The translations under genes and the position numbers were made by a program. From IMG/VR virus record IMGVR_UViG_3300022213_000237, positions 105,568-169,567 of that record: DNA of 64,000 nt, one strand, 5' to 3'. Below, one piece after another: positions 36,857 through 57,701 of the stretch. The notes under the pieces were generated by a model that searched no databases, was not told the origin of the DNA, and saw only the letters and a program-made list of their open reading frames with translations. The DNA is from a virus. Each line of letters begins with the position of its first letter. Positions within the stretch are counted from its first letter, which is position 1.

Positions 36857-37461
36857 TTAAGCGCCCAGAAGACAATCTGACGAAAATAGAGCAGGAAGAG
36901 CTTACTAAGTATCGACGCAGTGATGGCTACGCGCCTTTAGCTGCGTCTACAGCCGTGCGGCTATATCAGTTGTTCTTGTTGGGCCACTCGTGTGAGGAGA
37001 TTGTACGTACAAATGATAACCGTTTTCCGTTGGGTATGGTGGTCGATGCTCGCATTCGTCATGACTGGGATCGTCGTCGCACTGAGTATATCGATAGGCT
37101 GTATGAAGAGGCTGGAAGTATGGTGCGACAACGTCAAGTGGAAAGCGCTATGTTTCTTGGGGATATGCTTGCTGCGGCGCATGCAGAGTATGGCCCCAAA
37201 TTCCAAAAGTTCATTCAATCAAGAGACCCGAAAGACCTGCCCCCAGAATTTAAAATAGATACTCCCACAAAATACAAGATGGTTATCGACGGCCTCATGA
37301 AGATAACTGGTCAAGACAAGAAAGATGCAGCCGGCGCAGCCGTCCAGGTTATCGGCAACAATGTTATGTTGCAGGAAAGCGGATCTAAAACCGTTACTTC
37401 TCAAGAAGGGTTTGACATTCTTAAGCAGCTAGAACGTCTTGATAGTGAAAAGGTGAAGTAA
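36832..37461 (+). CDS. putative terminase small subunit
   Basis: Helical with N-terminal HTH-like region; stop overlaps terL start (positional inference). Confidence 0.45.
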   Translation: MAEEDKEIIKRPEDNLTKIEQEELTKYRRSDGYAPLAASTAVRLYQLFLLGHSCEEIVRTNDNRFPLGMVVDARIRHDWDRRRTEYIDRLYEEAGSMVRQRQVESAMFLGDMLAAAHAEYGPKFQKFIQSRDPKDLPPEFKIDTPTKYKMVIDGLMKITGQDKKDAAGAAVQVIGNNVMLQESGSKTVTSQEGFDILKQLERLDSEKVK

Positions 37462-40400: not shown

Positions 40401-40721
40401 CCTACCGATGTTCCTAGTGATTTTGAAGATGATGAATGCGACGCCCTCAGATACGTGATTGTGAATTTGTTTGGTAATCGTAGCAATATGGTGGCGGCAA
40501 TTGGTCCCGTGGCTCCCGGCGTTCAGTACGACCCTTCCTTTCCGGCGCCACGAGATGGAATGGGAATACCTCCTGGTATTTCCGTGTATCAAAACGAGAC
40601 TATTCTTGAATCTACTACTGAAAATTGGATGGATCGTAAAATTCAAGAACTTACCGGCAACCACGAAGATCCCAACGTCCCGAAATCCGGACGTAAAGGT
40701 TCTTTCAGCTTTGATTTTTGA
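37461..40721 (+). CDS. terL: terminase large subunit, intein-containing
   Basis: Walker A variant AARDSFKT, Walker B MVLDE, TSTR, nuclease GMDWG, ADPED, DDECDALRY. Confidence 0.9.
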   Translation: MDKLPKLTPAQLEFLAANREQLERRALFAVCISKEHLHAWIKRYLKIDLPDTIVCDDDVTTPASNSTPMDLVWEIYQKALQGDDEKFQRVLAYAARDSFKTLSASVLEILCLFHLRRDVAHMAAIEAQAQKAASYVSKYLNFPYLRDFVSGNNKREIRITRYEDSRGNILTPREFEELEPRDQRKYEPISHYMKIVIATLSGANCVDPTTFIRLANGEDVLAVDIKSGDEILNFDLKNHTWTTSKVGSVVSSIKAAMKVSLDDGSYVVVSEDHPVLTTRGWIRARALRLTDKVLPPPISSTTQVIKPPILADGVTLESFSVDQLILGSVLGDSSLTWPKNSSGDNYGSGPRFQVYHCAAQLPYLYHKKEILENAGIKCSVYMDPRGGGKLMTGVLPQYADYYRMMYPENKKQVTKEWLSKLTDEGLAYWLMDDGSGSPQKLGSRKDKHISIATCGFSLQEHQLIVDLFLAKGLNPKIGTVTNQSSKTWNVIEFDLDSSRELSSRLDKWIHPVLKYKFPTPFQLLDTRCIETGAPIQRSSGLGFSRITRTPKVSERERWSAFRDMFTRSIQQLEFLGKRVMMDISVDTDDEMKRNFVANSSLLLHNSEHVSFMVLDELDLAPAGPVEEAKMIPAPGQVRGELPITFMTSTRKFAIGLVQQEIDKAQKDSDYHLQIRHWNIIDVTKRCEPKRHLPEEPKIPIYYSEHSLRAISEPEYNLLSTEEKTKFLKQEGYAGCLRNCSLFAVCKGRLATKQKVTDDNVKPRPMLKPIPHVLTQFKSVNPDHAKAQLMCWKPSSEGLIYPFFNYSRHMIDAAEMYEKITGEEIPKDQLNNFTKADLIKVLQEREVEFYTGMDWGYTHNWAAVTGAKVGHRFFVFDVIAVAELEVMQKIEMYKNKLGFLDATVFADPEDRSSIETFRKNGVRMRKWKKGSVIGGIDAVRTKLMPGLNKEPELYFLANDEGCELLADRIAKYAWVLDATQKPTDVPSDFEDDECDALRYVIVNLFGNRSNMVAAIGPVAPGVQYDPSFPAPRDGMGIPPGISVYQNETILESTTENWMDRKIQELTGNHEDPNVPKSGRKGSFSFDF
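38073..39275 (+). mobile_element. intein (401 aa, class 1) with LAGLIDADG endonuclease in terminase
   Basis: CVDPTT start, SEDHPVLT, LGSVLGDS and LAYWLMDDG, ends LLHN then Ser; visibly more AT-rich than flanks. Confidence 0.93.
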
Positions 40722-41737: not shown

Positions 41738-43756
41738 ATGGCCGAAAACAAATCACCTCCAGGACCATTGCAGGCCGTCGTCGATGCTAAGGTACAGCGC
41801 TCCGGTGGGCGTATCAAATTCTCTCTTCATGATATCGATGAAGAAGGGAAGCTCCGCAAGTCCAAGGAAGAAGAAAATCCGTTGGCGGGTACCAAGCTTC
41901 AAAAAAGTTTCGTCAATTACACCGAAGACGTTAAGCGTGGGAAGGAAGTTAATCGTCTATCTTTTGAGGTAGACCCGACACACGCAAATTATTATCAGTC
42001 GTTGTGGATGCCTAAGTGGGGGCAACTTCCTGACCATGTCTTAAAACAAGTCTCCCTAAAAGATTCGTTGGTCGCCTCGATACTCACCATGCGCTCAAGC
42101 CAGATGTCTGCGTTTGGACGCGAATTGCAAGATCGCTTTGCTTCTGGTTATCGTATTGAGCCTCGGCCAGGTGTGATGGAAGATGCGTCCAATGAGCAAA
42201 AGGAGCTGCTCCAGAAGAGAATTGAAGATGCCAGTAAGTTGATTTCTACTTGCGGCTCTATCGAGGGGGTTCGTTTTGATGAGCGCATGTCTCTTTCTAC
42301 CTTTTTGTCGCTGCAAACCCGCAACGCTCTAGTTTTTGGTCGTTTTGCCACAGAAATTATATACACCCGAGATCCAGACGGAACTCGTAAATTTCACAGC
42401 TACCGGCCTGTCGATGCTGGGACCATTTACCAAGCGGCACCACGTCAAGATCATCTCAATCAAGTACGTAAAGAGGCTCTGCACCTACTTCAGCAGCTAA
42501 AAGGGCCAGATGCAGAAAAATTGAGTGCAGAAAAGTTTGAAAACGACGAATACGCCTGGGTGCAGGTGCTGGATGGCAAGCCTCGGCAAGCCTACACACC
42601 GGAAGAGATGGTCGTTCATAACATGTTTCCGTTAACGGATATTGAGTTGCGGGGTTATCCGATTAGTCCGATTGAAACCGTAATCGATGGCATCGCCACC
42701 CATATGAACATTGTACAGCACAATAAACTGTACTTTCAAAGTGGTCGAGCTGCCCGTGGTATGGTCGTCATTAAGTCACCGGACGTAGACCAGGGACTTG
42801 TGGCGCAAATACGTCAACATTTTAACGCGTCTATTAATTCTGTTTCTAACGCTTGGCGTGTACCTGTTTTTGGTGTTGACCCCGAAGATAGCGTCGAATG
42901 GGCACCCTTTGATATGTCCTCGGGCCGTGACATGGAGTTTCAATACCTATCTGACCAAAACGCGCGGGAAATTTGTTCTGCGTTCTTGATTTCGCCAGAA
43001 GAGCTACCCGGCTATCAGCACCTTAGTCGCGGCACTAACTCTCAGGCGCTTAGCGAAAGCTCTAATGAGTATAAGCTTGAGGCTGCTCGAGATGTCGGTA
43101 TCCGGCCTCTACTTAATCATTTCCAAGATTTCTTAAATGATCACATTTTACCTCTTATCGACCCCGCAGTTGCGCAGCTGTGCTCGCTAAAGCTCTACGG
43201 TCTCGATGCTGATACCGAAGAGAAAGAAGATACAGGTCTCACCAATCGTATGCAGATTGACCTGACCATGGACGAAATCCTTGAGCGTAAGGAAAAAGAT
43301 CCAGTTGGGAAAGAGTGGGGAGGGAAGTTTCTCTTCAATCCTGCTTGGCAGTCGGTGCTAGATAAGTATTTTAAGGTTTCGGACATCAAAAAACATTTCT
43401 TTGGGTTACAGCCCACAGAAGACGATGAATATGTAAGAGACCCCTTTTGGTTCAATTACCAACAGCTGAAGATGCAGGCAGAGCAAATGGAGCAACAAGC
43501 TCAGGCGCAACAACAGCAAGCTCAAGCCGAGAGCGGTGGTGAAGTCCAGGACGAAAGCCAAGAACAGGATTCTCAATTAGCTCAAAGCGCAGACAAAGCC
43601 ATTGATTTGATGAGCAAGAGCGAGAAACAACTGCCTCCCGGTAAACGGCGTTTGTTACATCTACACAAGAAAATCGTGAAAGACGCCATGGCGGAATGGG
43701 AAAAAGACAGTAAAGAAGCCTTGGCTGCGGTCGTGCAAGCCGTGAAGGACGAATAA
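41738..43756 (+). CDS. portal protein
   Basis: RPVDAGTI, GYPISPIE, YFQSG..ARG, NAWRVPV, DMEFQ..ICSAFLISPEEL, GIRPLL portal motifs. Confidence 0.88.
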   Translation: MAENKSPPGPLQAVVDAKVQRSGGRIKFSLHDIDEEGKLRKSKEEENPLAGTKLQKSFVNYTEDVKRGKEVNRLSFEVDPTHANYYQSLWMPKWGQLPDHVLKQVSLKDSLVASILTMRSSQMSAFGRELQDRFASGYRIEPRPGVMEDASNEQKELLQKRIEDASKLISTCGSIEGVRFDERMSLSTFLSLQTRNALVFGRFATEIIYTRDPDGTRKFHSYRPVDAGTIYQAAPRQDHLNQVRKEALHLLQQLKGPDAEKLSAEKFENDEYAWVQVLDGKPRQAYTPEEMVVHNMFPLTDIELRGYPISPIETVIDGIATHMNIVQHNKLYFQSGRAARGMVVIKSPDVDQGLVAQIRQHFNASINSVSNAWRVPVFGVDPEDSVEWAPFDMSSGRDMEFQYLSDQNAREICSAFLISPEELPGYQHLSRGTNSQALSESSNEYKLEAARDVGIRPLLNHFQDFLNDHILPLIDPAVAQLCSLKLYGLDADTEEKEDTGLTNRMQIDLTMDEILERKEKDPVGKEWGGKFLFNPAWQSVLDKYFKVSDIKKHFFGLQPTEDDEYVRDPFWFNYQQLKMQAEQMEQQAQAQQQQAQAESGGEVQDESQEQDSQLAQSADKAIDLMSKSEKQLPPGKRRLLHLHKKIVKDAMAEWEKDSKEALAAVVQAVKDE

Positions 43757-45756
43757 TGGCTAAGATCAAGCGCCTGTCTAAAAAGACGATGACTAAAATA
43801 GCCGACGCCGTCGACGCCCTCTTCGACAAAATGAAGGTGCGGCTTCTCGGCCCTCGTATGGTGGATAAGAAACTATTTATCACCTACAATCGCGAGAAAT
43901 CGTTACCCGGTCTCTACGAGCAGGCGCATATCGAAGAGAAAGGTATTCCAGACAAGGAACATCTTGATCAATTGGTGCGTACCACTGAAAATTACTTAGA
44001 AGCAGTGCGTCATCGAGCGAAGGCTAAGACCGTGGTCGCGGTACAGTCATTTATGGCCGAAAATCCTGACGCTAATGTAACCGACGTCCTGGGTGGCGAA
44101 CTTGCTGATATTTATGGTCAGGTTAAGCACGAGGTACGTAGGATTGCGGATACCGAAGCCCAGCATTTTCGCAATGTTGGTGTGATGGACGGTATTGTAA
44201 GAGTTAGCGCCGCCCACGGCATAAGTGATCCGATAGTGTATTTTGTTACAGTCAGAGACCAATACAGATGCGAGGAATGTACCCGACTCCATTTGCTTGA
44301 AGACGGCATCACTCCACGTGTCTGGAAATTGTCCGAATTAGGACATGGATATCATCAAAAAGGTGATGAAAATCCAAAGGTTGGGGGACTACACCCACAT
44401 TGTAGGTGCGTGTGGGATGGAAACGCACCTGTAATTACAGAGTCTGGTATCAAACCACTTAAATCTGTAGAGATAGGCGACCGGGTATTGACTCATACTG
44501 GTAAGTTTAAGAAAGTTATTGGTACTTTTTCTAAAGATGGTCTACTGCCGGAGAAAACGGACGACGTATACCGAATAGAATTCAGGTCCCCGCTGGGAAA
44601 AATACACAAGCTGCGTGTTACCAACGATCACTTAATGTTAACTCAGCGTGGTTGGGTGAGGGCCGAGGCCCTGGTCCCCGGTAAAGATACATTAGAATAT
44701 CTATTCGCTTCTTGTGAGACATGCAAAAAAGCATTTCCTCATAATATTCAAAAGCCTCGAAAAAGATTCTGCTCTTATAAGTGTTCTATTTCTGACAAAA
44801 TAGGTAAACCAAGTCCTACTCTTGGCAGGAAAGCTACACCAGAAGAAAAAGAGTTGAGATTAAAATCCATTAAAGCACTTTACGAAAAGAAGCACAAAAC
44901 AACATTCCCCCAAAAGACTGTTAATTGTAACGGGTGCGGAAACGAGTTTACAGTTGAAACTGGGTATAGGGATAAGTCTGGACATTGGGTGTCTCGTAAG
45001 AATTATAAGCTCGAGTATTGCTCTCGATCGTGTATTTCTAAGGCCATAGCTCTCAAACAATGGTCAAGTGCTGAACATAGACTTGCTGTTTCGGAAGCTA
45101 ATCGAAAATCTATGTTAGAACAATATCGTACTGGCAGACGCAACCCTTTAGGTATTAAAGAAGCCAGGCAAGCTCTTTACGGTTTGGGTCGAGGCGGAAG
45201 TAAAGACGAGAAACGTTTGTATCAAACAATTAAAAGCTCTTACTTAGACGCCGAATCCAACTATTCGATAGGAAGATATTTTGCTGATGTTGCTATTCCA
45301 TCTATTAAGACAGTTGTAGAGTGGGACGGTGGTGGTCACTGGCTTGATGTATATAAAGGCAAAAAGACTATGGAAGAAAAGATAGCTGAAGACGCAACTC
45401 GTGATGAGTTTATGAGAAGTTTGGGGTGGCACGTTCTCAGATATACAGAAGAAACAGGGTTTAGCACAATATTCGAAGATATCCGGAGGGTGGCTCAAAA
45501 TTCTACTGGTCAATACTCATTCAGGCCTGTTGAAATTGTCAAAGTAGTTAGAATTCCAGCCAGCAAAGCCTCCCCTGGAAGGAGATTATATGATATAACT
45601 GTAGAGGATGATTCTTCTTTTGTTGTTATGGGTATTGTTTCTCATAATTGTTCTATGACCACACTTCTTCCCGGATTCGGATTTGATAGTGCCGGTATGG
45701 TTGCGTGGAAGGGTGAACATCACGACGAGTTTGAGCGCCAGCGTGCAGGGCTTTAA
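43756..45756 (+). CDS. MuF/SPP1 gp7-like head morphogenesis protein, intein-containing
   Basis: RRIADTE, D.yrCeeC, LHPHCR[intein]C motif; directly after portal. Confidence 0.85.
   Translation: MAKIKRLSKKTMTKIADAVDALFDKMKVRLLGPRMVDKKLFITYNREKSLPGLYEQAHIEEKGIPDKEHLDQLVRTTENYLEAVRHRAKAKTVVAVQSFMAENPDANVTDVLGGELADIYGQVKHEVRRIADTEAQHFRNVGVMDGIVRVSAAHGISDPIVYFVTVRDQYRCEECTRLHLLEDGITPRVWKLSELGHGYHQKGDENPKVGGLHPHCRCVWDGNAPVITESGIKPLKSVEIGDRVLTHTGKFKKVIGTFSKDGLLPEKTDDVYRIEFRSPLGKIHKLRVTNDHLMLTQRGWVRAEALVPGKDTLEYLFASCETCKKAFPHNIQKPRKRFCSYKCSISDKIGKPSPTLGRKATPEEKELRLKSIKALYEKKHKTTFPQKTVNCNGCGNEFTVETGYRDKSGHWVSRKNYKLEYCSRSCISKAIALKQWSSAEHRLAVSEANRKSMLEQYRTGRRNPLGIKEARQALYGLGRGGSKDEKRLYQTIKSSYLDAESNYSIGRYFADVAIPSIKTVVEWDGGGHWLDVYKGKKTMEEKIAEDATRDEFMRSLGWHVLRYTEETGFSTIFEDIRRVAQNSTGQYSFRPVEIVKVVRIPASKASPGRRLYDITVEDDSSFVVMGIVSHNCSMTTLLPGFGFDSAGMVAWKGEHHDEFERQRAGL
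44407..45648 (+). mobile_element. intein (414 aa) with zinc-finger and Vsr/DUF559-like endonuclease
   Basis: CVWDGNAPVIT start, VTNDHLMLTQRGW, YFADVAIP..VVEWDGGGHW..RDEFMRSLGWHVLR, LYDITV..IVSHN then Cys. Confidence 0.9.
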
Positions 45757-45966
45757 ACCGGCTCAAAGCCGGTCATGAATCCGATTTCGTCGACTGGCTA
45801 CTCATTAGTTTTCTCCTTGGTTAATGGCCGGAATGGGTAACCCCGTTTAGAGCCAAGTAAACAGAGTAACGTTCACGGTAGGAACAAGTCAAGGGCGGCG
45901 GCAATCTTTGCGGTATGGGTTTGTTGGACGCTACCGGATTTGAGGTCACTGCGTTTACATTTTTGA

Positions 45967-48900
45967 GTGAAGACGTCAATGAATAAGCTAACTAAATCGA
46001 TGGTTATTGATGGAATTGCAGCTTCACAAGCTATTGATTCTTCAGGTGAAATCTTAGACATCGAAGGCTTAGATATTTCGTCAGTTAAAGAGGGTACGGC
46101 TCAAATAAATTACGAGCACCGCTCTGATTCGTCTGATGGGGCGAGCGCCAATGATATTATTGGCCATATCACTTACGCGAAGAAGATTTTTGGTCCCAAA
46201 GACTGCGAAAACGACCGACAACTTAAGTACTGGAATTCGGTCCAGTTACCGTTTGTGTACATCAAAGCCGAGCTTTTTGACGGTGAGGGGCATGTCGGAG
46301 CACAGGCAGCGGCGGCATTGATTCGATATTACCACCTCCGACGCCTACCCCTTGTGGCGAGATACTCAATCGAGGGATCTACTTTAAAACGAGAAGGCAA
46401 CACCCTCAAACGCTCTATAATGAAGAGGGTTTCTCTCACCGTAAAACCTTGTAATCGTTCATGCATTTCTGGTGTTCTTTCCGATGGCGAAAAACCCGAA
46501 GCTTCACCAGACGCGCTTGAAAGTCTTAAGCGTTTTGAGAATCCAGGTCGTGCGAAACTCGGCGGCTACGAAGGCGAATTCGAACCCGTGGTTTTAGACC
46601 CTCTTCAGAAGATGAGAGACGCGGTGGAATCGCTGCGTGAGATGAATAATCTCAATAAAGCTCTTTCAGCTGGCGGCTTTGATGCTGTCCCTACAACTCT
46701 TACTGGCGGAGCCGCACTTTCGGCTGAGAATTTTGGCGACGTTGAGAAGAGAAAGAAATTTATTAAGAATCAGGTTCTTGGCGCCGTACGTGATTGGCGA
46801 GGTCGTGGTGACCTTCGGAAGTTTCTGAAGCATCGTATGCCCGACGCATCAGAGGACTTCATCAATCATTTTGCTGCTCTGGTCGAAGACTATCAACTTA
46901 AGAAGTTTGCCGACCTTGAAGCCAACCTAAATAAGGCAGTAGCTGGCGGCGCCGTTGCAGGTAAGACTCCAGCGGCTGCGATACAGCCCGCAGACAAACT
47001 GGCACCAAAGAAACCTGATTCTAAGGTCCAGACCAAGGCCAAGGCACAAAAGCTGGCGACCGTGGAGCAACATCACGCCAAAGTCAAAGCCACACAAGAA
47101 AACGAAGATAACCTAACCGAAGCCGACCTTGGCGATCAACCTTTAACCGTGCGCGGTAAAGCGGTACGCGCGAACGACAATATCACGTCTCCTCATTTTG
47201 ATGAGCGAACAGGTACTCTACACACTCAACGCGGGTCCTTCAAGATGTACTTGCCGCAGGAAGATAAATTCCCAGGCGCTTTAGAGTCATTCCATAACGC
47301 TCTGAATGATCCAAAGGCTACTCATTTCCATGACTACGCTACCAGTAATTGGCTGAAGGTTCACAAACTTCTTAAGGAGGGTCGTCTGCCTCCGGAAGTG
47401 ATTATGCACAGTGTGTTGTTTTCACAACTGAGTCCCAATACACCTGTCCCCATGCAGGAGCTAATGTACGGACATTTAGTGGACACCATGAAGGAAAAAG
47501 GGGTAGATGCCCGTTCGCCTTCATTCTCTTCTATTAAAGACGATTGGATAGGCAGAGATACCGGTAAGAAATTCCCTGAAGTGGCGGGAGATTTTTTCCA
47601 ACAGAATCAAGGAATCCGTCTCAAAAACCCAACATCTACTAGAGAAGCTGGAGATATGGGGAGTTTCATGCTTGCGAACAACAAGTTCAAAAACATGGAA
47701 CAGTATCATGGTCTCCATAATTCGTTAGTGGAGCTGTTTGGTCGTCATAGTACCGATGCCCGCGCAGCCGTTTCCGAGCTTATGGGTCATAAGCATAAAG
47801 CCAACTTGTGGGAAGCAAGGCGTGCTCGCGAAATCGAGAAAGGTAGACCCGATCCTGGTGAATATGCCGATGGCCCAGCAGTCCCAGGCCTAGCACCAAA
47901 GACTGGACGCTACATGGCGGCCATGATTGGCGGCGGCAACGTCCACGTGCCAGATACCCATTTTGCCCGTTATTTATTTGGTCTCGAGAAGGGTACGGAT
48001 AAGCGTTCAATTGCTTACCTCAAAAACACTTTATGGAATCCCAACAACAGTCACGTTCTTGAGGGTATCGATCGTTTTTACGCCACGAATCACCCAGCTG
48101 TCCAGCACATGATGGATCATCCTGTTTTTGGTAAACAGTTTGCTTCCCGCGAAGACGCTATTTTCCCCGCGTTCTGGAAGAATTGGATAGCTATCGCACC
48201 ACACGAGCGAGCACGCAAAATGAAGACCATGGCTTACAACGAAGCCACGGACCATAAACCTTTCTGGGAAGCCATCGCTCCATTTACGAAAGCAGAAAAC
48301 GACGATGTGAGCTTTGACTTTGGTGCTAATGCGGACACACATGCACATGCGCGTAAGGTTGTTAATCGATTACGAGAACCTAATCGTTCTGTGGGTCATG
48401 CTTTTGTGGATTATGTTGTTGGCAAGTCCCCAAAACGTCCAGATATTCACCCCGACCTGGAACGACATCTAGCTCGTCACGGCATTGTTGATCCAGCTGG
48501 ATACGGATTCGATGAATCTGGCCGCAGTATGCGCCGACCTATTCCGGGTCCGCGTAAAATTGGTCGCGGCGAGGAGCCTCGAGACCTACACAGATTCAGG
48601 ATGATGAATCGTGGCTGGGATCCCGGCTACGTCAAAGGCGAGCTAGAGAAGTCTGAATCCGGAAATACATTGCCGCAGCAAACGGCACGGCTGCATGCTC
48701 AATGGGTTGAGCAATACGGCGAGATTCCGGCGCAAATGCTATACTACGCTCACATCGTTCCTCAGCTGTTGCGCGCGAGCCGCAGAAACGAGAACGTGAT
48801 TGTCAAGTTTCAGCGTATAGCCGAAGATTTACGTAAGGCCGTACCTCAAGACCCGCCATTGCCAGAATTACCTAAACACGACACCACAGGCTTACATGAG

Positions 48901-50055
48901 TTTCAGAATTCTTGGACTAAGCCCGGTGAAATCGAACTAACAGCCGGCCCATTCAAAGGCAGTAAGCTCGCATATCTTGGTAAGGATAGCTTGAAAGGTA
49001 AGCATTTTGCTAAAGCCCCGACCGGCGAACTACATACTCTACCATTTAGTCAGGAAGGCAAGGCGTTCAAAATCAATGTTCCGCCTCAACCCGTCAAATT
49101 GCCGGCGTATGTGGATGCAAATCAACATAGCGATCCTCTTAATAAGACGTTTGCTCAGAAGTCGCTCTTACACGGCATTGATATCAATGATCGTGTGGGT
49201 CGCATCGAAACCGAAACACTTACGTCCAGCGCCCCAGGTGCCGGTTGGTATAAGAATCATGCGGGTGAGATGGGTTTGGTCAAACCTGATCCAAAAGGGG
49301 CTGCAGATTGGTGGGCTGATGAAGATCCAGAGTATGTTCGTGCTCAAAAATCTTACGACTTGCCAAGTCGTGAAGCTTTGTATCCGGTCATGGCCAAAGA
49401 ATTTTTCGGCATGGGTCAATATGTGCCCACTACCGCCAAGTTTACTCATCCTAAGACGGGCGAGCCTATGTCCGTTCAGCAGCGAGTTGCTGGCGCCGAA
49501 CATGTCGACATAGATGACGACGACCACGCCTACAATTTACACAAACTCTACAGTCAAGGCGAGTTAGATAAGTTAGGCCTCATGGATATCTTGATGGGTA
49601 ATAATGATCGCCATCAAGGTAATTTTATGATGACTTCAAAAGAGCCACATGTTCATCTAATAGATAACGGATTATCTTTGGATTACAAGAATCCGTTGAT
49701 ACCTCACGAAGTATGGCTATCTCATCAATGGATGACTGACCATATGCATGGGCATCCCAGCTTCGGCGCTCATCCGATTCATGCAGCCGCCACCAACTGG
49801 TTGCTTGGATTGGATCATGGAGAATTTGTTAAACAACTTCTTAACCATGGTGTTCCCGAAAACATTGTCAAGCATGCGTCGCGACGCATGCAGGCTCTAC
49901 AATTAGAAGCTGCGCAATCAAAACTCGACCCCGCGCAGCCGTTTACACGGGCCCGCGCTGGCCACGTTGTCGATAACCTCAATGGATTTGTCAATCGTTG
50001 GGGTTCACCATTTGTAGCGGCAAAACCTAAGGCCACAAATTCGGACTCAGAGTAA
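45967..50055 (+). CDS. prohead protease fused to HhH-GPD glycosylase-like and PI3/4-kinase/HipA-like domains
   Basis: N-term IDGIAA..IDSSGE..INYEH..IIGHI..YSIEG protease; VPGLAPKT..VPDTHFAR (~47881-47970); REAL..VPTT..DILMGNNDRHQGN..LIDNGLS (~49250-49950). Confidence 0.8.
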   Translation: MKTSMNKLTKSMVIDGIAASQAIDSSGEILDIEGLDISSVKEGTAQINYEHRSDSSDGASANDIIGHITYAKKIFGPKDCENDRQLKYWNSVQLPFVYIKAELFDGEGHVGAQAAAALIRYYHLRRLPLVARYSIEGSTLKREGNTLKRSIMKRVSLTVKPCNRSCISGVLSDGEKPEASPDALESLKRFENPGRAKLGGYEGEFEPVVLDPLQKMRDAVESLREMNNLNKALSAGGFDAVPTTLTGGAALSAENFGDVEKRKKFIKNQVLGAVRDWRGRGDLRKFLKHRMPDASEDFINHFAALVEDYQLKKFADLEANLNKAVAGGAVAGKTPAAAIQPADKLAPKKPDSKVQTKAKAQKLATVEQHHAKVKATQENEDNLTEADLGDQPLTVRGKAVRANDNITSPHFDERTGTLHTQRGSFKMYLPQEDKFPGALESFHNALNDPKATHFHDYATSNWLKVHKLLKEGRLPPEVIMHSVLFSQLSPNTPVPMQELMYGHLVDTMKEKGVDARSPSFSSIKDDWIGRDTGKKFPEVAGDFFQQNQGIRLKNPTSTREAGDMGSFMLANNKFKNMEQYHGLHNSLVELFGRHSTDARAAVSELMGHKHKANLWEARRAREIEKGRPDPGEYADGPAVPGLAPKTGRYMAAMIGGGNVHVPDTHFARYLFGLEKGTDKRSIAYLKNTLWNPNNSHVLEGIDRFYATNHPAVQHMMDHPVFGKQFASREDAIFPAFWKNWIAIAPHERARKMKTMAYNEATDHKPFWEAIAPFTKAENDDVSFDFGANADTHAHARKVVNRLREPNRSVGHAFVDYVVGKSPKRPDIHPDLERHLARHGIVDPAGYGFDESGRSMRRPIPGPRKIGRGEEPRDLHRFRMMNRGWDPGYVKGELEKSESGNTLPQQTARLHAQWVEQYGEIPAQMLYYAHIVPQLLRASRRNENVIVKFQRIAEDLRKAVPQDPPLPELPKHDTTGLHEFQNSWTKPGEIELTAGPFKGSKLAYLGKDSLKGKHFAKAPTGELHTLPFSQEGKAFKINVPPQPVKLPAYVDANQHSDPLNKTFAQKSLLHGIDINDRVGRIETETLTSSAPGAGWYKNHAGEMGLVKPDPKGAADWWADEDPEYVRAQKSYDLPSREALYPVMAKEFFGMGQYVPTTAKFTHPKTGEPMSVQQRVAGAEHVDIDDDDHAYNLHKLYSQGELDKLGLMDILMGNNDRHQGNFMMTSKEPHVHLIDNGLSLDYKNPLIPHEVWLSHQWMTDHMHGHPSFGAHPIHAAATNWLLGLDHGEFVKQLLNHGVPENIVKHASRRMQALQLEAAQSKLDPAQPFTRARAGHVVDNLNGFVNRWGSPFVAAKPKATNSDSE

Positions 50056-50059
50056 AGAT

Positions 50060-50512
50060 ATGATCTCCAACGGCATCTACAGACTATATAAGCTCCATCA
50101 CGATGAGCTAAACAATACGACCCGGAGTCTAGCTGGACGAATTCTCGTACACGATGGGCAGATTGAGCACCTTGAAGATCATGGCGGCATGGACCGTTTA
50201 CTACCCTCAGGTCCAGTCACTCCCGCGTTGGAGCGCAGATTCTCTCGTCTCACCTCCAGCGGTTACCACGAATTAATTAACGAAGCCGACATCGCGGCGG
50301 GCCATCATCCCGACGAAGTACAAGACCTAGATGTAGGTCCTGTTGAAGCAGAACATAAATTCATCATGACTGGCGATGGGGTTTCTACACCCGCAATGGT
50401 GGAAATGTGGGACGACATTATTACCGTCGATGGTCGTGAACTTGATGCTGTCGAAGCACACTCCCTACTCAATGAAGTAGCTGGCGGTAGGATTGTTCTT
50501 ACACCAATCTAA
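50060..50512 (+). CDS. hypothetical protein in head module
   Basis: 150 aa acidic ORF. Confidence 0.6.
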   Translation: MISNGIYRLYKLHHDELNNTTRSLAGRILVHDGQIEHLEDHGGMDRLLPSGPVTPALERRFSRLTSSGYHELINEADIAAGHHPDEVQDLDVGPVEAEHKFIMTGDGVSTPAMVEMWDDIITVDGRELDAVEAHSLLNEVAGGRIVLTPI

Positions 50513-50541: not shown

Positions 50542-51768
50542 ATGAGCAAAAATATTCTTAAACTTTTTGACGACCTCAAAAAAATGGACCCAACGCTCTC
50601 GCAAGCATTGGCAAATATTCGTGCTGGTCGCGCTACGCCTCAAGATGCAGATGTAGTCAGCAGGGGCCTATACACAGACACGATGATTCCGCGTATTGGC
50701 AATAAATACGCTTATAATGATCATGTTTCTCGACACGCAAATGATGGCATCCATACCCATTTAGATTTAAACGATTTTCGTCAAATCAATAAACAGCATG
50801 GCCAGCAACACGGGGACGCCGCCATTAAACAATTTGGTAACATTGCAGCCGACGTATCCCGCATGTTTGGCGGCAAAATGCATCGCCGTGGCGGCGACGA
50901 GTTTTCTGCTTGGTTTCATCGTCCGGAAGCTGCGCACGGGTTTGCGCGCGAACTCAGAAATCGGTTAGAGAAAACTCCTAAAGTCGCGGGTACACACAAT
51001 CTCGCAGCTTCTATCGGTATCGGCTACACACCAGAGCATGCCGAGAAGGCCTTACTCGAGGCCAAAAAGCAACTTGGTTCCACGGATCCAACTACAGGTC
51101 AACGTGTTAATGTGCATAGTGTAGGAAACGCTCCTACCGTAATCCATAGCTTGACTCACGAACAGCCTCCCGAAAACTGGAAGCCATCTAAAGGTCAGGC
51201 GCCCGGCCAAGCCAAAGAGTTGCCATCTTTAGCTCCAGCCGGATTACAATTTAATAACCCGCTCGCAAAAAGTACTGCTAAACAGCCGGTACCCTCAAAA
51301 CATCCGGCTCTAGAAGGTGGAAGAGTAGGTATCATGACTGGTGAAAATCCTTTTCATCCGGCTACCGCCTCTGGCGGGAACGCGGGTCTCGAAAACGAGT
51401 TACGGAGTAGGGGGTTGCGTTTTGAGAAGGTTAAGGGAAAGTATTCTGAAGGTGAGCCAGAAAATAGTTTCATCATTCACGACGTCGATGCTCCAACGCT
51501 AATGGATTTAGGTAAACGCTACGGGCAAGACAGCGTACTCCATTCTCATAATGGTACTCATAAACTAATTTACACAAACGGACCTAATGAAGGCACATAT
51601 CACCCTGGTCACGGATTAACGGTTCATCCACAAGAGCCGGAAATGTACTATTCGACCTTAGTCCATAATGGGAATCCGGTTCACTTCACTATGAACTTGG
51701 ATTTTGATCAGAAACTTCCTTTGTCTTCTCATTCGACTCAGAAGCCTTCGAACCACGAGCAGCAATAA
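50542..51768 (+). CDS. GGDEF diguanylate cyclase domain fused to DUF3293-like domain
   Basis: TDTMIPRIGN, DLNDFRQIN..HG..HGD, RRGGDEF (50890-50904), ASIGIG, AEKALLEAK; C-part IMTGENP..ENSF..GKRYGQDSVL. Confidence 0.85.
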   Translation: MSKNILKLFDDLKKMDPTLSQALANIRAGRATPQDADVVSRGLYTDTMIPRIGNKYAYNDHVSRHANDGIHTHLDLNDFRQINKQHGQQHGDAAIKQFGNIAADVSRMFGGKMHRRGGDEFSAWFHRPEAAHGFARELRNRLEKTPKVAGTHNLAASIGIGYTPEHAEKALLEAKKQLGSTDPTTGQRVNVHSVGNAPTVIHSLTHEQPPENWKPSKGQAPGQAKELPSLAPAGLQFNNPLAKSTAKQPVPSKHPALEGGRVGIMTGENPFHPATASGGNAGLENELRSRGLRFEKVKGKYSEGEPENSFIIHDVDAPTLMDLGKRYGQDSVLHSHNGTHKLIYTNGPNEGTYHPGHGLTVHPQEPEMYYSTLVHNGNPVHFTMNLDFDQKLPLSSHSTQKPSNHEQQ

Positions 51769-52594: not shown

Positions 52595-53521
52595 ATGCCT
52601 AAAAAGACTTACACAAACGAAGAGCTGAACGCGCTGGTGGCCGAGTTTTCCGCAGAGTTCGACCAGCTCGTTAAAGCAGAAGTCGCAAAAAGCGGTGCTG
52701 CTTTAGCCAAGTCTGAAGAACTTCGTAAGGACGATGAGTCCAGCGATGGAGATGACCAGAAGTCGCCTCCTCCAGACAGCGCTTCCGCAGATGCTTCTTC
52801 ACCTGCTCCGGCAGCTTCCGCAACTTCTCCAGACCCAGCTTCTCCTGCAGACGCTTCGGCACCTCCTGCAGACGCTTCGGCACCTCCGGCTCCCGACGCT
52901 TCTGCTTCTGCTCCGGCAGACCCCGCAGCTTCTGCGGCAGGAAGCGATCCTATGGCGGCTCTGACTCAGGCGTATTCGCAACTCTCTCCAGATGAGTTGG
53001 CTATGCACTTTCAGGCGCTTAAGCAGGTTCTTATGGCCGGTCAAGCTGGCGCCGAAGGCGCTGGAATGCCCGCAGACCCTATGGCAGGCTCTTCTGCTCC
53101 GGCTGCAGGTCCAGCAGCAGTAGCTCCTCTCGCAGGAGAAGGAAGCCAGCCTGTCGATCCAGCATCGACGATGGCGCTCAAGAGCGAAAACGAAGAATTG
53201 ACTCTCGTCAAGTCTGAGCGTGATGCCGCCGCAATGAAAATTGCGGAACTTGAGAAGTCCGTTGCTGCACTTACCGATTCACTCGGCAAAGTGTTGGCTC
53301 AGCCGATGCGAAAATCAATCACCGGCAAAGACATCGCAGGTGTTCTTGCTACTGACCCGAAACCGGCTCCTAAGTATGAGTCGATGACGAAGTCTGAAAT
53401 TACTAAAAAGCTACTCACTGTAGCTAACGACCCCGCACTGAAGAAGTCGGATCGTCAACTGATTAACAACTATTACAAGGGTGAAGCAAATGTCGAAGCC
53501 CTTGCACACCTTCTCAGCTAA
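52595..53521 (+). CDS. capsid scaffolding protein
   Basis: Directly upstream of MCP; coiled coil plus Ala/Pro/Asp low complexity; many xxKS(E) motifs. Confidence 0.65.
   Translation: MPKKTYTNEELNALVAEFSAEFDQLVKAEVAKSGAALAKSEELRKDDESSDGDDQKSPPPDSASADASSPAPAASATSPDPASPADASAPPADASAPPAPDASASAPADPAASAAGSDPMAALTQAYSQLSPDELAMHFQALKQVLMAGQAGAEGAGMPADPMAGSSAPAAGPAAVAPLAGEGSQPVDPASTMALKSENEELTLVKSERDAAAMKIAELEKSVAALTDSLGKVLAQPMRKSITGKDIAGVLATDPKPAPKYESMTKSEITKKLLTVANDPALKKSDRQLINNYYKGEANVEALAHLLS
52842..52887 (+). repeat. 21-bp tandem repeat (about 2.2 copies) encoding PADASAP
   Basis: CTCCTGCAGACGCTTCGGCAC at 52842 and 52863. Confidence 0.9.
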
Positions 53522-53559: not shown

Positions 53560-54963
53560 ATGGCCGCAGGACTAATTGAAAAGCTAGACGAGCTGCGCAA
53601 AGCTTTGGAAGCGGGTAACTTCAACGCCCGTCCTTCGAGCCTTGTTCAGGGCTCCGCAATGCAAGTGGAAGACATTTCGCCAGTGATGGTTAATGTCACC
53701 TACAATGACAAAACTCTTAAACTCCAGAAGAAACTGGGAGTGAAGCCCGCGAAGGGAACCTTCATCCAGTTCCTACGACGTTTGTCGTACGGTACCTGGG
53801 GCGGATCCGCTCAGCTCGAAGGAGCAGTTGGTAATGAGCAGACCGGTGATTACGTACGTGCCGGTATTCCGATGGCGTACTACTCGGAAGTTCGTCGCGT
53901 CACCCACGTGGCATCGCTCGTCAAGACTGTTACTGGCGAAGATCCGAAAGAGCTGGAAGCGGAAGCCGCTGCTCTTCGTCTCGCTGGCGACATCGAGTTC
54001 GACTGTTTCCGTGGCAAGGCCGACTTCACCAACGCAGGCGTGTTCGATGGTAACCCCAACGTCATCCCCGCGCTCGCGAACATGATTGGTCTCGAAGTTC
54101 AGATCCGTCAGTCCGATCTGCAGAGCAACACCCAGGACCTGATGTTCGAAGCCTACGGCTCGGGCCTCTCGGTCGTCATCAATGGTGGCTCGACGCTGTC
54201 GAAGAGCAACATCGAAGACGCTCATGTTCGTAGCCAGATGAACCACGGCACTGCGGACAAGCTCTTTGTCGACCCTCTCGTTCTGTCCGCACATAACAAA
54301 ATTATGTGGAACAACGAGCGCGTGGTTCTCGGCGCTTCCGCCCAGGATGCGACCGGTCAAGACCTTCGTCGCCAGTTTGTTTCCGGCGGTATGGTCGAAA
54401 TCGAAGCTTCCCGTTTCCTCTCGGGCAAGTTCAAGTCGAGCCGTCCTCGTCTTAACGCTCCTGCGGCACCGTCGATTGCTGTTGACGCGACCAACGCCTC
54501 GAGCACGGCATTCGTTGCTGGCCAGGTTTACACCTACTACGTTACGGCTGAAAACAGCCTCGGCGAAGGTTTCCCCTCGGCTAGCGCGTCAGATACTGTT
54601 ACCGTCAACGGTAACCGCATCGACGTGACCATCACCCCCGGCGCAGGTACGCAAACGTTCTTCAACGTTTACCGTTCACCCGCTGGTGGAAGCGCGGCGC
54701 AAGCTCGCTTCATCGGTCGAATCGTGAACTCGGGTGCTGCGACCACGGTGTTCCGAGACCTTGGCAACAAGATCCCCGGATTCGTGACCGGCTTCCTGGT
54801 GCAAGAAGACACGATGGAACTCATGGAACTGTCGGCATACAGCCGCATGAAGCTCGCGGTCACCGACCTGTCGGAACCCGAAGCCCACTTCAGATTCCTT
54901 TGCTTGAAAGTTACGGAGCCCAGAAAAAATTGTTTGATCGATAACCTCCGTGGCGATCTGTAA
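53560..54963 (+). CDS. major capsid protein (SPO1/Twort-like)
   Basis: N-arm LRKALEAG..GSAMQVE, IEFDCFRG, GLEVQI, C-terminal APAAP..YTYYVTAEN..GE..PS..FNVYR; strong RBS; followed by terminator. Confidence 0.88.
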   Translation: MAAGLIEKLDELRKALEAGNFNARPSSLVQGSAMQVEDISPVMVNVTYNDKTLKLQKKLGVKPAKGTFIQFLRRLSYGTWGGSAQLEGAVGNEQTGDYVRAGIPMAYYSEVRRVTHVASLVKTVTGEDPKELEAEAAALRLAGDIEFDCFRGKADFTNAGVFDGNPNVIPALANMIGLEVQIRQSDLQSNTQDLMFEAYGSGLSVVINGGSTLSKSNIEDAHVRSQMNHGTADKLFVDPLVLSAHNKIMWNNERVVLGASAQDATGQDLRRQFVSGGMVEIEASRFLSGKFKSSRPRLNAPAAPSIAVDATNASSTAFVAGQVYTYYVTAENSLGEGFPSASASDTVTVNGNRIDVTITPGAGTQTFFNVYRSPAGGSAAQARFIGRIVNSGAATTVFRDLGNKIPGFVTGFLVQEDTMELMELSAYSRMKLAVTDLSEPEAHFRFLCLKVTEPRKNCLIDNLRGDL

Positions 54964-55088: not shown

Positions 55089-56849
55089 ATGTCTGAGCTT
55101 ACACCAGAAGAAAAAAAGAAACGTAGAAACGAGCAGATTCGTATCGCCAGAGCCAAACGTTTTGAAGACCCAGTTTATAAAGCAGAACAGCTTCGGAAGA
55201 ACGCGGAACGCACGGCTCGACTGCGGGCAAAGAAAATAGCGGCTGACCCGGATTATTTACGTAAAGAGGCTGAATACAATAAAAAATATCGAGCCAAAAA
55301 TTCAGAAGCACTTCGGCAACAAAATAAAGAATATCACGCCCAACATAGAGAAAAACGAAATGCGGCCACAAGAGCCTGGAAAGAGGCTCACCCCAAAGAA
55401 TCTGCCCCCAACTCCAACATCGTTGCTCCAGAGATCAAGCTTAAAATCGTAGAGCTTCGCAAACAAGGTATTGAGCAGGCGGAGATTGCGAAGCAGTTAG
55501 GGATTAAAACAACGACAGTAACGTACGTATGCCACCAAGCCGATATCATTCTCACAAAAGAGCAGCGTTCGGCTAGAACCTGGGGCGATACAGATTTACA
55601 GCGGCTTAAGGACCTTCGGAAAGAGCATCCAGATTGGACCAGAAGACAGTTAAGCCAGGCCACCGGATTCAGTGTCCCCACCATCAAAAGAATATTGGCG
55701 TTAGCTGGTCCTGACGCCGCTTTGTCGCCAGAACAAATACAAATCAACGCTCGCGCCGCAAGAACCGTTAACGCAGAAGAGCGACTATTACAGAGATACG
55801 GTGGAAAAAGTTGGCAAGAGGTAATGAGCCTTCTTGCTTCGCGTCGCGGAGGGAAGGTTTTAGGTCAATATCAAGACCACAAAGTGAAATTGGAATTTGA
55901 ATGTCAAGAGGGCCACAAATTCTTTGTGGTTCCCAATGGTATCCAACAAGGGCAGTGGTGCGCAAGATGCGCTAATGTTGGGCCATCCAAAGCCCAACTA
56001 GAGATTTCTGAATACGTAAAGTCTTTGGGGATAAAAGTAGTTGATGGAGACCGATCGGTCATCAAACCCCTGGAAATCGATATTTACTGTCCTGAGATTG
56101 GATTAGCCATAGAGTACAATGGATTATATTGGCATTCTTCAGCTGTACTTAAAGAGCGTGGTCGGCATTTTAGAAAATGGCAGGCTCTGAATACCGCTGG
56201 AATCGATTTGTTTGCTATTTTTCAAGACGAATGGATTGTAAAGAGAGATCTCATTCAGGCTATGATTCGCCAGCGGGTGGGAAAATCTTCGGCACACAGA
56301 ATTTACGCCCGAGACTTGGAATTTAGAAGAATTGCGAGAGACGTCGCCGTCGAATTCTTTGAACGAAATCATCTCGACGGAGCTGGAGCGTTTTTTGACG
56401 CGTACGGGCTTTTTGACGGAGATAGGTTGATAATGGCCGCAGCCACGAGAACCAACTTTAATGGTGAATTCGAACTCGCTCGTATGGCCACGGATTATGA
56501 TTTTGCTGTACCTGGGGGCGCGAGTAAATTGCTGACACATATAGGTAGACCCATCATTTCATTCAGCAACAACCGACTATCTAACGGTAACGTTTATAGT
56601 AAACTGGGAGGTAAGTTGATTCAAGTGAACTCACCATCCTATTGGTATACAGACGGCACGGCAAGGATTTGGAGATGGAAATGTAGACGTATCAACACCC
56701 CTGAGATTTTGGCCAGATACCCCACAGAAGAATTGCAAGCCCTTAATGGAGTATTTAGTAAAAAAGAGTTCGGAGACGACCGTAAGCTATTTCGTATTGA
56801 AGATTACGGGCATCAGAAGTGGGAACTTGATTTAAAGATCCCCCGATAA
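55089..56849 (+). CDS. Hef-like free-standing homing endonuclease (PD-(D/E)xK) with HTH repeats and GNAT-like C-terminus
   Basis: HTH repeats, FECQEGH..WCARC ribbon, LEIDIY..LAIEYNGLYWHS, NHL.G..ELARMA..VPGGASKLL. Confidence 0.75.
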   Translation: MSELTPEEKKKRRNEQIRIARAKRFEDPVYKAEQLRKNAERTARLRAKKIAADPDYLRKEAEYNKKYRAKNSEALRQQNKEYHAQHREKRNAATRAWKEAHPKESAPNSNIVAPEIKLKIVELRKQGIEQAEIAKQLGIKTTTVTYVCHQADIILTKEQRSARTWGDTDLQRLKDLRKEHPDWTRRQLSQATGFSVPTIKRILALAGPDAALSPEQIQINARAARTVNAEERLLQRYGGKSWQEVMSLLASRRGGKVLGQYQDHKVKLEFECQEGHKFFVVPNGIQQGQWCARCANVGPSKAQLEISEYVKSLGIKVVDGDRSVIKPLEIDIYCPEIGLAIEYNGLYWHSSAVLKERGRHFRKWQALNTAGIDLFAIFQDEWIVKRDLIQAMIRQRVGKSSAHRIYARDLEFRRIARDVAVEFFERNHLDGAGAFFDAYGLFDGDRLIMAAATRTNFNGEFELARMATDYDFAVPGGASKLLTHIGRPIISFSNNRLSNGNVYSKLGGKLIQVNSPSYWYTDGTARIWRWKCRRINTPEILARYPTEELQALNGVFSKKEFGDDRKLFRIEDYGHQKWELDLKIPR

Positions 56850-56858
56850 TAATCATGA

Positions 56859-57701
56859 GTGAAGATCTCAGCCAAAATTATTGCCGATAGCGTGCTCGCG
56901 CCTGGTCATGCCGCAGGTATTCCTCGTTTAACTACGATGGAGTTGACGTACCCTAGATTCATTCACTCGGAGTTCATGACGCATCGCGTCTTTTCTCGTA
57001 ATGCTGCGTCTTCCCGCGCCATTCCCGTGCGCAAAATGCTGACACAAGTTTGGAAAGACCCGGCAATGCCAACATACTGGGGCTCGAACAAGCCGGGTAT
57101 GCAGGCGGGTGCGGAGTTAACCGGTTGGCGCCTCAAAGCCGCTAAAAAGCTTTGGGTGTTAGCCGGTTGGGTGATGGTTGCGTTCGCTTGGAGTCTATCA
57201 AAACTAGGGCTCCATAAACAAATCGCTAATCGTATTCTCGAGCCGTGGATGTGGATGAAGACAATTGTATCCGCCACCGACTGGGGAAACTTCTTTAACC
57301 TCCGAATCCATGCCGATGCGCAGCCAGAAATAAAAGTTCTGGCGGAGGCCATGCTGAAAGCCATGAACAGCAGCCGCCCTCGCCAGCTACAACCGGGCCA
57401 GTGGCATCTACCGTACGTACGCGGCTCAGAATACTTGCTTTACAGCTATGACAGCATGGGCTTGCAACAGATCTCTGCCGCCCGCTGTGCCCGCGTTTCA
57501 TATCTAAATCATGACGGTTCGAAGCCCGACGTCAAAAAAGATCTCGAGCTATACGAAATGCTTGCGAAAGCCCCACACGCATCTCCCTTTGAACACCAAG
57601 CCACCCCGGTTGTGGGAAGGCACGGCAACTTCAACGGTTGGAAGCAATTCCGCCAATTCATACCTAACGAGAATCAACCTGACTACAAAGGATTTAAATA
57701 A
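56859..57701 (+). CDS. thyX: FAD-dependent thymidylate synthase
   Basis: EFMTHRVFSRNAASSRA motif, HKQIANRILEP, FFNLR..AQPEI, HASPFEH. Confidence 0.9.
   Translation: MKISAKIIADSVLAPGHAAGIPRLTTMELTYPRFIHSEFMTHRVFSRNAASSRAIPVRKMLTQVWKDPAMPTYWGSNKPGMQAGAELTGWRLKAAKKLWVLAGWVMVAFAWSLSKLGLHKQIANRILEPWMWMKTIVSATDWGNFFNLRIHADAQPEIKVLAEAMLKAMNSSRPRQLQPGQWHLPYVRGSEYLLYSYDSMGLQQISAARCARVSYLNHDGSKPDVKKDLELYEMLAKAPHASPFEHQATPVVGRHGNFNGWKQFRQFIPNENQPDYKGFK

Follow-up and report, generated by a model that had tools for sequence, protein, structure and literature searches.

A prohead protease gene with glycosylase-like and kinase-like C-terminal domains in a relative of Myxococcus phage Mx1, and its possible role as a carrier of capsid cargo

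Phages lambda (C/Nu3), P2 (gpO) and Mu (gpI/Z) make the prohead protease as the N-terminal portion of a larger head-assembly protein; this protein is processed in the prohead, and its C-terminal parts are scaffolds that are later degraded. In HK97 and T4 the prohead protease becomes active within the assembled prohead and is held inactive elsewhere. In 2017 Iyer, Burroughs, Anand, de Souza and Aravind described the polyvalent proteins encoded by phages and conjugative elements (PMC5512222). Here we describe an open reading frame (ORF) at positions 45967-50055 on the plus strand of a 64,000-nucleotide stretch of virus DNA (the window), which is the final 64 kb of the 169,567-bp record IMGVR_UViG_3300022213_000237 and is related to Myxococcus phage Mx1. 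The gene sits between the portal and capsid genes, inside the head module, and its product joins a divergent prohead protease to a domain with the predicted fold of DNA glycosylases and to a predicted kinase. On balance, we favour the reading that it encodes a prohead protease with a self-cleaving train of C-terminal cargo enzymes. We found no published description of enzymes carried into the capsid by fusion to a prohead protease.

The ORF is open throughout and counts 1362 codons from a GTG; the public gene call (P0002) begins at the ATG at 45979, which is likely the true start and gives 1358 aa. Residue numbers are counted from the GTG in the 1362-aa polyprotein (P0001). Its parts are as follows, with an arrow marking each candidate cut.

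45967-50055, plus strand: whole polyprotein gene, 1362 aa from the GTG or 1358 aa from the ATG at 45979.
45979-46491, plus strand: prohead serine protease catalytic domain, residues 5-175 (phrog_1028, homology to SPO1 gp3.2, invariant His51 and Ser134).
46492-46935, plus strand: protease C-terminal extension, residues 176-323 (stand-alone proteases align to ~320).
46936-47136, plus strand: variable Ala/Lys/Pro-rich linker, residues 324-390, of low occupancy and low conservation in the family alignment.
47137-48291, plus strand: predicted HhH-GPD-fold (HhH, helix-hairpin-helix) domain resembling DNA glycosylase/AP lyases, residues 391-775 (structure model, VIA-align, hhalign to Nth).
48292-48651, plus strand: lineage-specific insert, residues 776-895, 13.6 kDa and basic, bracketed by FTK↓AE (773-777) and LEK↓SE (893-897).
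48652-48837, plus strand: conserved three-helix segment, residues 896-957, ending at LRK957↓A (occupancy 1.0; helices in the model).
48838-49116, plus strand: small beta-rich domain, residues 958-1050 (strands at model positions 81-147; left uncovered by most structural matches).
49117-49986, plus strand: predicted kinase domain resembling type II PI4-kinases, residues 1051-1340 (PF00454, Foldseek, VIA-align, motifs).

Sequence comparisons identify residues 1-~323 as a complete, divergent prohead serine protease of the HK97/SPO1 type, made up of a catalytic domain and a C-terminal extension. The phrog_1028 profile ('head maturation protease') is matched by 88 of 116 family N-termini, with a best E of 1.2e-11. 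When residues 5-185 were searched by tblastn against 50,697 phage records, the matches were Mx1 and 23 SPO1-like Herelleviridae, all of them within the gene for the head maturation protease (E 2e-4 to 0.3, 85% coverage). SPO1 gp3.2 aligns to residues 13-166 (blastp E 1e-8) and is itself recognised by Pfam as Peptidase_S78, scoring 23.7 bits on PF04586 against a 21-bit cut-off. His51 and Ser134 are invariant in 116 sequences and pair with the NFDH and FSVEG motifs of gp3.2, and the gene lies between the portal and scaffold/capsid genes in the window and its relatives alike. An hhalign comparison with HK97 gp4 gave an E of 0.005 with the Ser strand off by 3 residues; a Smith-Waterman alignment of the polyprotein with HK97 gp4 covered an irrelevant region and was discarded. 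The PDB profile search with the protease alignment returned nothing, Pfam found no meaningful family in the 116 protease domains, and NCBIfam added nothing.

A length-restricted search of the relatives found stand-alone proteases of 300-366 aa. Two of these, P0171 (317 aa) and P0145 (300 aa), come from contigs longer than 120 kb that have the same head module, in the order portal, MuF-like gene, protease, ~150-aa gene, scaffold and capsid; both are free of appended modules, and they align to residues 1-~320 of the polyprotein and no further. Since the stand-alone forms end at ~320, the ancestral protease unit corresponds to residues 1-~323. The first-pass annotation, made from the letters alone, had named a head-maturation protease in the first ~175 aa; its assignment agrees with the PHROG match, the SPO1 homology and the His51/Ser134 pair, and its length was too short. 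Because phages with such cargo-less proteases build the same head module, the residues after ~323 are additions that are dispensable for head assembly. The extension itself holds a candidate self-cleavage site (LNK231↓A), a copy of a capsid N-arm motif (residues 229-256, nt 46651-46734), helices and a second candidate site (LNK323↓A). A complex prediction between the scaffold and extension residues 205-325 scored 0.00, which speaks neither for nor against binding.

The same fused architecture is present in the Mx1 isolate genome and in more than 100 independent contigs, and it is common to at least 193 clusters (90% identity), mostly on contigs of 150-180 kb. The fusion is therefore not an assembly artefact, and the chimera that had been named as a possible trivial explanation is rejected. 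Mx1 is the sole named relative and has an identical gene order; its orthologue WNM70322.1, of 1239 aa, is annotated 'putative prohead protease', and the genome announcement gives only this annotation (PMC10720576).

The AlphaFold2 model of residues 391-775, calculated from a 108-sequence alignment, has a pLDDT of 95.4 and a pTM of 0.93. By VIA-align the model most closely resembles the Thermotoga Ogg Tm1821 (3n0u_A; Z 14.3, rmsd 3.0, 202 of 209 Tm1821 residues aligned). The top 22 rows all belong to the HhH-GPD superfamily, including human OGG1, the queuine-salvage enzyme DUF2419, EndoIII, MagIII and Mag1 at Z 8.6-9.1, and unrelated rows begin at Z 5.5. Only this exhaustive alignment found the fold: Foldseek gave no significant match for the model against the PDB, and against a viral library it gave marginal matches (E ~5e-3, prob 1.0) to unnamed large Caudovirales proteins. 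When the family profile is aligned with E. coli Nth by hhalign, residues 637-669 fall on Nth 112-144 without a gap, K645 on Nth K120 and D663 on Nth D138, with 18 residues from Lys to Asp in both. The stretch VPGLAPKT...VPDTHFAR, from which a glycosylase-like domain with a helix-hairpin-helix and Asp had first been proposed, is present at residues 639-668 (nt 47881-47970), and the match to Tm1821 together with the EndoIII-type spacing upholds that proposal.

Conservation was assessed in 240 proteins that carry the middle domain, including representatives of less than 50% identity. Each of Lys645, Asp663, His665 and Arg668 is present in 237 of 238 sequences, and the mean column identity of the domain is 38%, compared with 26% for the kinase. 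The domain is basic (pI 9.2). Residues 391-775 are cysteine-free and therefore hold no [4Fe-4S] cluster, in likeness to the cluster-free Ogg/AlkA-type members. Searches of the PDB with three polyprotein segments as single sequences, the middle domain among them, and with the middle-domain profile were empty, and no Pfam family covers any of 108 middle domains. A profile search of 1.84 billion representatives returned 206 middle-domain proteins, of which 174 score below 1e-30, and did not trail off into distant relatives; the family occurs almost only in large phage head or polyvalent proteins. Given the fold match, the closed family and the absence of a PF00730 match, the predicted structure therefore describes a new sequence family of the HhH-GPD fold with the Lys-plus-Asp signature of glycosylase/AP lyases.

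Inteins tend toward functionally critical insertion sites. In homologues of the polyprotein they occupy three highly conserved blocks of the middle domain, SPN↓TPVP, ELMY↓[GS]HLVD and GGGN↓xxVPDTH (here the arrow marks the insertion). Such inteins were seen in P0040, P0056, P0060, P0086, P0100, P0103-P0105 and P0121, the last of which has two.

The C terminus is predicted to be a kinase resembling the type II PI4-kinases with a full catalytic set. Pfam PF00454 scores 31 bits against a cut-off of 27.1 (E 3.1e-7) over profile positions 127-176 of 241 only, and it also appears in the precomputed annotation of many homologues. The best matches of the kinase model (pLDDT 91.1) are type II PI4-kinases, 4hne_B by Foldseek (E 3.6e-6) and 9hhm_B by VIA-align (Z 18.8, rmsd 3.1, 241 residues aligned), with lower scores for CtkA (14.1), Fam20 (~13), HipT (12.5) and HipA (10.8). 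The motifs D..MGNNDRHQGN (1207-1219) and LIDNG (1231-1235) quoted in the first-pass annotation are found at nt 49585-49671. The kinase fold and the DRHxxN and DxG motifs bear out its PI3/4-kinase assignment, and 'HipA-like' is set aside as the best name on the scores above. D1214-R-H-x-x-N1219 and I-D1233-N-G are kept across the kinase-type members, and K1106, E1136, D1214, R1215, N1219 and D1233 are each at least 90% conserved; from their positions, K1106 and E1136 would be the ATP-binding Lys and Glu. The kinase profile aligns to the catalytic and activation loops of PI3K-alpha. As the protein kinases CtkA and HipT also match at Z 12-14, the fold cannot separate a lipid from a protein substrate.

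Between these two enzyme folds lies the ~120-aa insert, which had been noticed at the outset for its FTK↓AE and LEK↓SE borders. It is real and unique among 120 homologues: residues 781-895 have no counterpart in Mx1 or in 119 other aligned homologues (occupancy 0.01). Its right end repeats the ancestral junction of P0099, IDPFVEGEINK↓AE, and its base composition resembles that of the rest of the gene. We found no homologue of similar length (proteins that might embed the insert were not searched) and no second copy in the genome. An intein was considered for this segment and rejected, as intein terminal residues are absent.

The junctions of the polyprotein carry a candidate cut-site motif, hydrophobic-x-Lys↓Ala/Ser, with the strict form [LIVMF]-x-K-[AS]. 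The same motif can be followed into neighbouring genes of the head module.

50060-50512, plus strand: 150-aa gene, homologous to P0099 residues ~830-955 (E 4e-10).
50542-51768, plus strand: GGDEF cyclase with a DUF3293/SAM-lyase-like domain, joined at PLAK↓S (Pfam; fused cyclase of P0099, E 7e-30).
52595-53521, plus strand: scaffold-like protein; 8 [LIVMF]-x-K-[AS] motifs where 1.36 are expected (P<0.0005).
53560-54963, plus strand: major capsid protein with a candidate propeptide cut, ELRK14↓ALEAG (phrog_752, E 7e-42; N-terminal motif).

Within the polyprotein family the junction lysines are conserved in 120 of 120 sequences (K231), 108 (K775), 84 (K957) and 81 (K323), and the motif stands at both ends of the insert. 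The strict form is present in 127 of 228 family proteins within a window of 30 residues at the middle domain's end, where 14.6% would be expected, and in the 60 residues upstream of the domain in 110 of 185, against an expected 27%. Cuts at the five candidate sites would yield pieces of 25, 10, 50.5, 13.6, 7.3 and 44.9 kDa. The motif lysines of the scaffold are conserved among five orthologues of 25-39% identity, and 20 other proteins of the window have motif counts at background. The capsid protein begins MAAGLIEKLDELRK↓ALEAGNFNA, and the stretch after its Lys resembles polyprotein residues 232-256, with 13 of 26 positions identical.

This capsid N-terminal motif is kept in Mx1 and in SPO1 gp6.1 (ALNK↓ALEAGH). 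In SPO1 (L011, 3926-6866) the scaffold gp3.3 has 11 L-x-K-[AS] motifs against 1.09 expected, and the protease gp3.2 has 5 against 1.07, including PLDK↓SLEAGY after the catalytic domain, which mirrors the K↓ALEAGH of the capsid protein. From these sequences a Lys cut-site code seems common to Herelleviridae and Mx1-like phages. The HK97 gp5 capsid sequence has K103↓S104 within FNK↓S, and Lys103-Ser104 is reported to be the maturation cut (Duda et al. 1995). For SPO1-like phages we found no experimentally mapped capsid cleavage sites in the literature that we searched. A 948-aa ORF at 27674-30520 (minus strand) has 6 [LIVMF]-x-K-[AS] motifs where 2.1 would be expected (P=0.017). No other protein outside the head module has a motif excess, and the product of this ORF could be a further substrate of the head protease.

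The modules that follow the protease are exchanged among relatives. In P0099 the 150-aa gene and the GGDEF gene are both fused in frame into the polyprotein, where they replace the kinase, and that lineage has no separate cyclase gene. Since the 150-aa gene is fused in frame into the polyprotein of another lineage, its product is likely a fellow cargo. Some lineages have a C-terminal GGDEF cyclase in place of the kinase, and after a short form of the polyprotein without a C-terminal enzyme comes an independent GGDEF gene. In Mx1 the cyclase stops precisely at the PLAK↓S junction. P0075 has a GNAT module ahead of the middle domain, and in some protease-less proteins the middle domain is preceded by SAM-lyase-like, GNAT or metalloprotease modules and, immediately ahead of it, by x-K↓[AS]-E. 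Middle domain and kinase occur together in 155 of the 240 family proteins (65%).

Two further observations concern these modules. The SAM-lyase-like module of the gene at 50542-51768 also heads protease-less polyvalent proteins with the glycosylase-like domain (P0240, P0246, P0253). On the P0281 contig (Logan SRR23086379, 89.8 kb), a stand-alone 448-aa glycosylase-like domain is encoded just downstream of three genes matching PI3_PI4_kinase (749, 1554 and 363 aa); as separate genes for the two domain types adjoin here, the types are linked even when unfused.

These results lead us to the following model. The protease part would co-assemble into the prohead core like any prohead protease, and the passengers would enter along with it. 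Once activated, the protease would cut after Lys at hydrophobic-x-Lys↓Ala/Ser sites, the same site type at which it would process the capsid protein behind Lys14 and cut up the scaffold. Cuts at K231, K323, K775, K895 and K957 of the polyprotein would free a glycosylase-like protein of ~50 kDa, the 13.6-kDa insert protein and a kinase of ~45 kDa inside the head. When the DNA is ejected, the freed proteins would leave too, in time to act as soon as the next infection begins. We infer packaging, cleavage and ejection, and likewise every substrate, including the host DNA and the host defence or translation proteins put forward as targets in the first-pass annotation. The cargo reading gains indirect support because cargo-less proteases occupy the same position, because the C-terminal modules are swapped, and because the Lys motif is common to the junctions, the capsid protein and the scaffold.

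Several points weigh against this model. PF04586 is matched neither by the polyprotein nor by the 116 N-terminal domains (Pfam, E<=1), and PF00730 finds no match in the polyprotein gene even when the genome is searched alone; the protease and middle domains are thus assigned by transitive homology and predicted fold, not by a sequence hidden Markov model (HMM). In the polyprotein alone the motif excess is modest (8 against 3.6 expected, P=0.03). About 17% of the 240 middle-domain proteins show no protease part, and fusion to the protease is therefore not the sole route into the head, if the proteins are packaged at all. The presence of the kinase in 65% of the family, along with the separate neighbouring genes, could point to joint enzymology and not to independent effectors. 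Finally, the extra domains of the polyprotein go undescribed in both the Mx1 genome paper (PMC10720576) and a review of myxophages (PMC6070905).

Such joint enzymology is at the centre of one alternative, which we consider rather unlikely, in which the glycosylase-fold domain and the kinase form a DNA-hypermodification machine that acts on the phage's own DNA. One example would be a hydroxymethyl-pyrimidine that is activated by the kinase and then substituted, or exchanged as a base, by the HhH-fold enzyme, either late in infection or in the head; fusion to the protease would couple the enzymes to packaging in time and place, and there would be no injected effectors. Both domains do occur in 155 of the 240 family proteins and also as separate neighbouring genes, yet about one third of the family is without the kinase, and the GGDEF, GNAT and SAM-lyase-like swaps at the same positions fit effector cargo better. 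A phage 5-PmdU glycinyltransferase (8z2m) is among the structural matches of the middle domain, where its Z of 3.9 is weak against 14.3 for Ogg and 8-9 for EndoIII, OGG1 and Mag, and the Lys/Asp pair, in identity and spacing, is that of bifunctional glycosylase/lyases. The known 5-hmdU DNA kinases are P-loop enzymes, which the PI-kinase-like domain is not. In favour of this alternative, a ThyX-like (Thy1) gene followed by a dNMP kinase gene lies directly after the head module (56859-58513, plus strand), and Mx1 DNA may contain minor pyrimidines of unidentified nature according to a review (PMC6070905). Taken on their own, these two genes and the Mx1 report hint at modified pyrimidines in the phage DNA. 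They leave room, too, for an injected glycosylase/lyase that would attack unmodified host DNA while the DNA of the phage is protected.

We give a similarly low probability to an internal head or DNA-handling protein. Here the HhH domain would mainly bind packaged DNA as a core, pilot or DNA-end protein, possibly covalently through a Lys Schiff base at an abasic or modified site, and the C-terminal enzymes would be pulled along as the DNA leaves, or would act on head proteins during assembly. The middle domain is indeed the one constant passenger, it is basic and better conserved than the kinase, and it is the core of the protease-less polyvalent proteins too; HhH motifs, moreover, bind the DNA backbone without sequence preference. 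A purely binding role is harder to reconcile with the near-invariant Asp, Lys, His and Arg of catalytic type (237 of 238 each), which suggest chemistry, as does the invasion of the motif blocks by inteins. Related phages also build the same head module without the domain, which is thus not needed for head structure.

Least probable, and in our view very unlikely, is an unpackaged precursor made late in the cytoplasm, from which the protease would free the enzymes in the infected cell in the style of a viral polyprotein: encapsidation is itself inferred, and enzymes for repair or signalling would be at hand during DNA packaging if expressed late, but the proteases of HK97 and T4 are active only inside the prohead, the junction motif is identical to that on the capsid N terminus and the scaffold, and the modules are appended to a protease extension that bears a capsid N-arm-like element.

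Returning to the cargo model, a bolder form of it can be stated, although we think it unlikely to hold in full. In Mx1-like phages the protease would be a general loading dock: each head would take up tens of copies of any enzyme that is fused to the protease or carries the Lys code, to be released by cleavage and injected. The middle domain, as the constant passenger, would represent a new, phage-only bifunctional HhH-GPD glycosylase/lyase clade that nicks unmodified host DNA on entry and spares phage DNA with modified pyrimidines, and the PI4KII-like kinase or the GGDEF cyclase would reprogramme signalling or defence of the host within the first seconds of infection. These would be the first virion-delivered DNA glycosylase and kinase known in phage.

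The wider locus has several features of its own. The head module runs from a large terminase gene with a LAGLIDADG intein through a 325-aa gene, the portal gene and a MuF-like gene with an intein to the polyprotein ORF, and continues 3' of it with the 150-aa gene, the GGDEF gene, a 149-aa gene, the 308-aa scaffold-like gene and the major capsid protein gene. An intein that bears a LAGLIDADG homing endonuclease (Pfam LAGLIDADG_2 E 1.8e-21, Intein_splicing weak) splits the large terminase subunit (37461-40721, plus strand), and the Mx1 terminase is ~420 aa shorter. The intein-like insert of the MuF-like head protein (43756-45756, plus strand) carries a DUF559/Vsr-type endonuclease together with zinc-finger-like motifs, and the orthologue of this head protein in Mx1 is only 258 aa long. 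Immediately 5' of the polyprotein gene, a 210-nt gap (45757-45966) holds a GC-rich hairpin (ACCGGCTCAAAGCCGGT); four small genes on the reverse strand take its place in Mx1. A gene for a 586-aa HNH/HTH homing endonuclease (55089-56849, plus strand) lies between the capsid and ThyX-like genes and is absent there in Mx1. Further downstream, an 841-aa multi-domain protein (61376-63901, plus strand) combines GNAT and NUDIX domains (Pfam); its counterparts in Mx1 and L004 are annotated NUDIX, and it is probably another polyvalent virion protein.

If the cargo model is correct, a clade of ~170-kb soil phages ships a DNA-cutting enzyme of repair type and a kinase of eukaryote-like lipid-kinase fold in its capsids. 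This clade comprises at least 200 representative sequences and includes the culturable pair of Mx1 and Myxococcus xanthus, strain DK1050 of which supports growth of Mx1. Two enzyme classes would be added to the short list of phage-injected proteins, cargo would be addressed to the head in a new way, by fusion to the maturation protease, and capsids could be loaded with proteins of choice by means of the cut-site code (hydrophobic-x-Lys↓Ala/Ser), which would be simple, portable and common to SPO1-like phages. As the glycosylase-like family is invisible to sequence HMMs, it would extend the HhH-GPD superfamily, and there may be a link to the modified pyrimidines long ago reported in Mx1 DNA.

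Compared with known systems, what is new is that the carrier is the prohead protease itself, that the constant passenger is a glycosylase/lyase-like enzyme, and that the candidate cut lies after Lys, as in Herelleviridae. Within that family, SPO1 shares with the window a homologous catalytic domain (gp3.2, E 1e-8), the gene order portal, protease, scaffold, capsid, homologous capsid proteins (gp6.1, E 7e-21), K↓[AS]-L-E-A-G elements that follow the protease domain and mark the N terminus of the capsid protein, and scaffolds rich in L-x-K-[AS]. SPO1 gp3.2 differs in that it has 256 aa and no passengers, whereas the protein of the window has ~1040 residues more and two enzyme folds, and a protease domain too divergent for a direct PF04586 match.

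For the single domains, the middle domain shares with Ogg2 (Tm1821, 3n0u) and Nth the fold, the helix-hairpin-helix, the Gly-rich loop and a Lys and Asp 18 residues apart; in contrast to them it spans ~385 aa and not ~210, has no Fe-S cysteines, falls outside PF00730 and belongs to a closed family. The kinase resembles the type II PI4-kinases (PI4KII alpha and beta) in its fold, the DRHxxN loop, the DxG motif and a PF00454 score above the cut-off, with CtkA and HipA/HipT more distant; unlike them it is phage-encoded and fused to a head protease, and the sequence match is confined to the catalytic-loop region.

The polyvalent proteins (PMC5512222) also place unrelated enzyme domains in one virion-associated polypeptide, swap modules and are presumed to be delivered with the DNA, and the polyprotein likewise has at least two unrelated catalytic domains in one chain that are shuffled among relatives. 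Its carrier, however, is a prohead protease and not MuF: the polyprotein has no LPD or MuF Pfam match, the MuF-like protein being encoded by a separate upstream gene, and the only LPD match in 108 middle-domain members is LPD22 at an E of 0.1. A text search of PMC5512222 found no 'glycosylase', 'PI3K' or 'HipA'. As with the internal proteins and Alt of T4, the passengers would be released at a short consensus by the prohead protease (gp21 in T4), with the differences that the cut would follow Lys and not Glu and that the carrier is the protease and not an N-terminal capsid-targeting peptide. In contrast to the protease-scaffold fusions of lambda, P2 and Mu, the C-terminal parts here are predicted folded enzymes with conserved active sites, and the scaffold is encoded by a separate gene.

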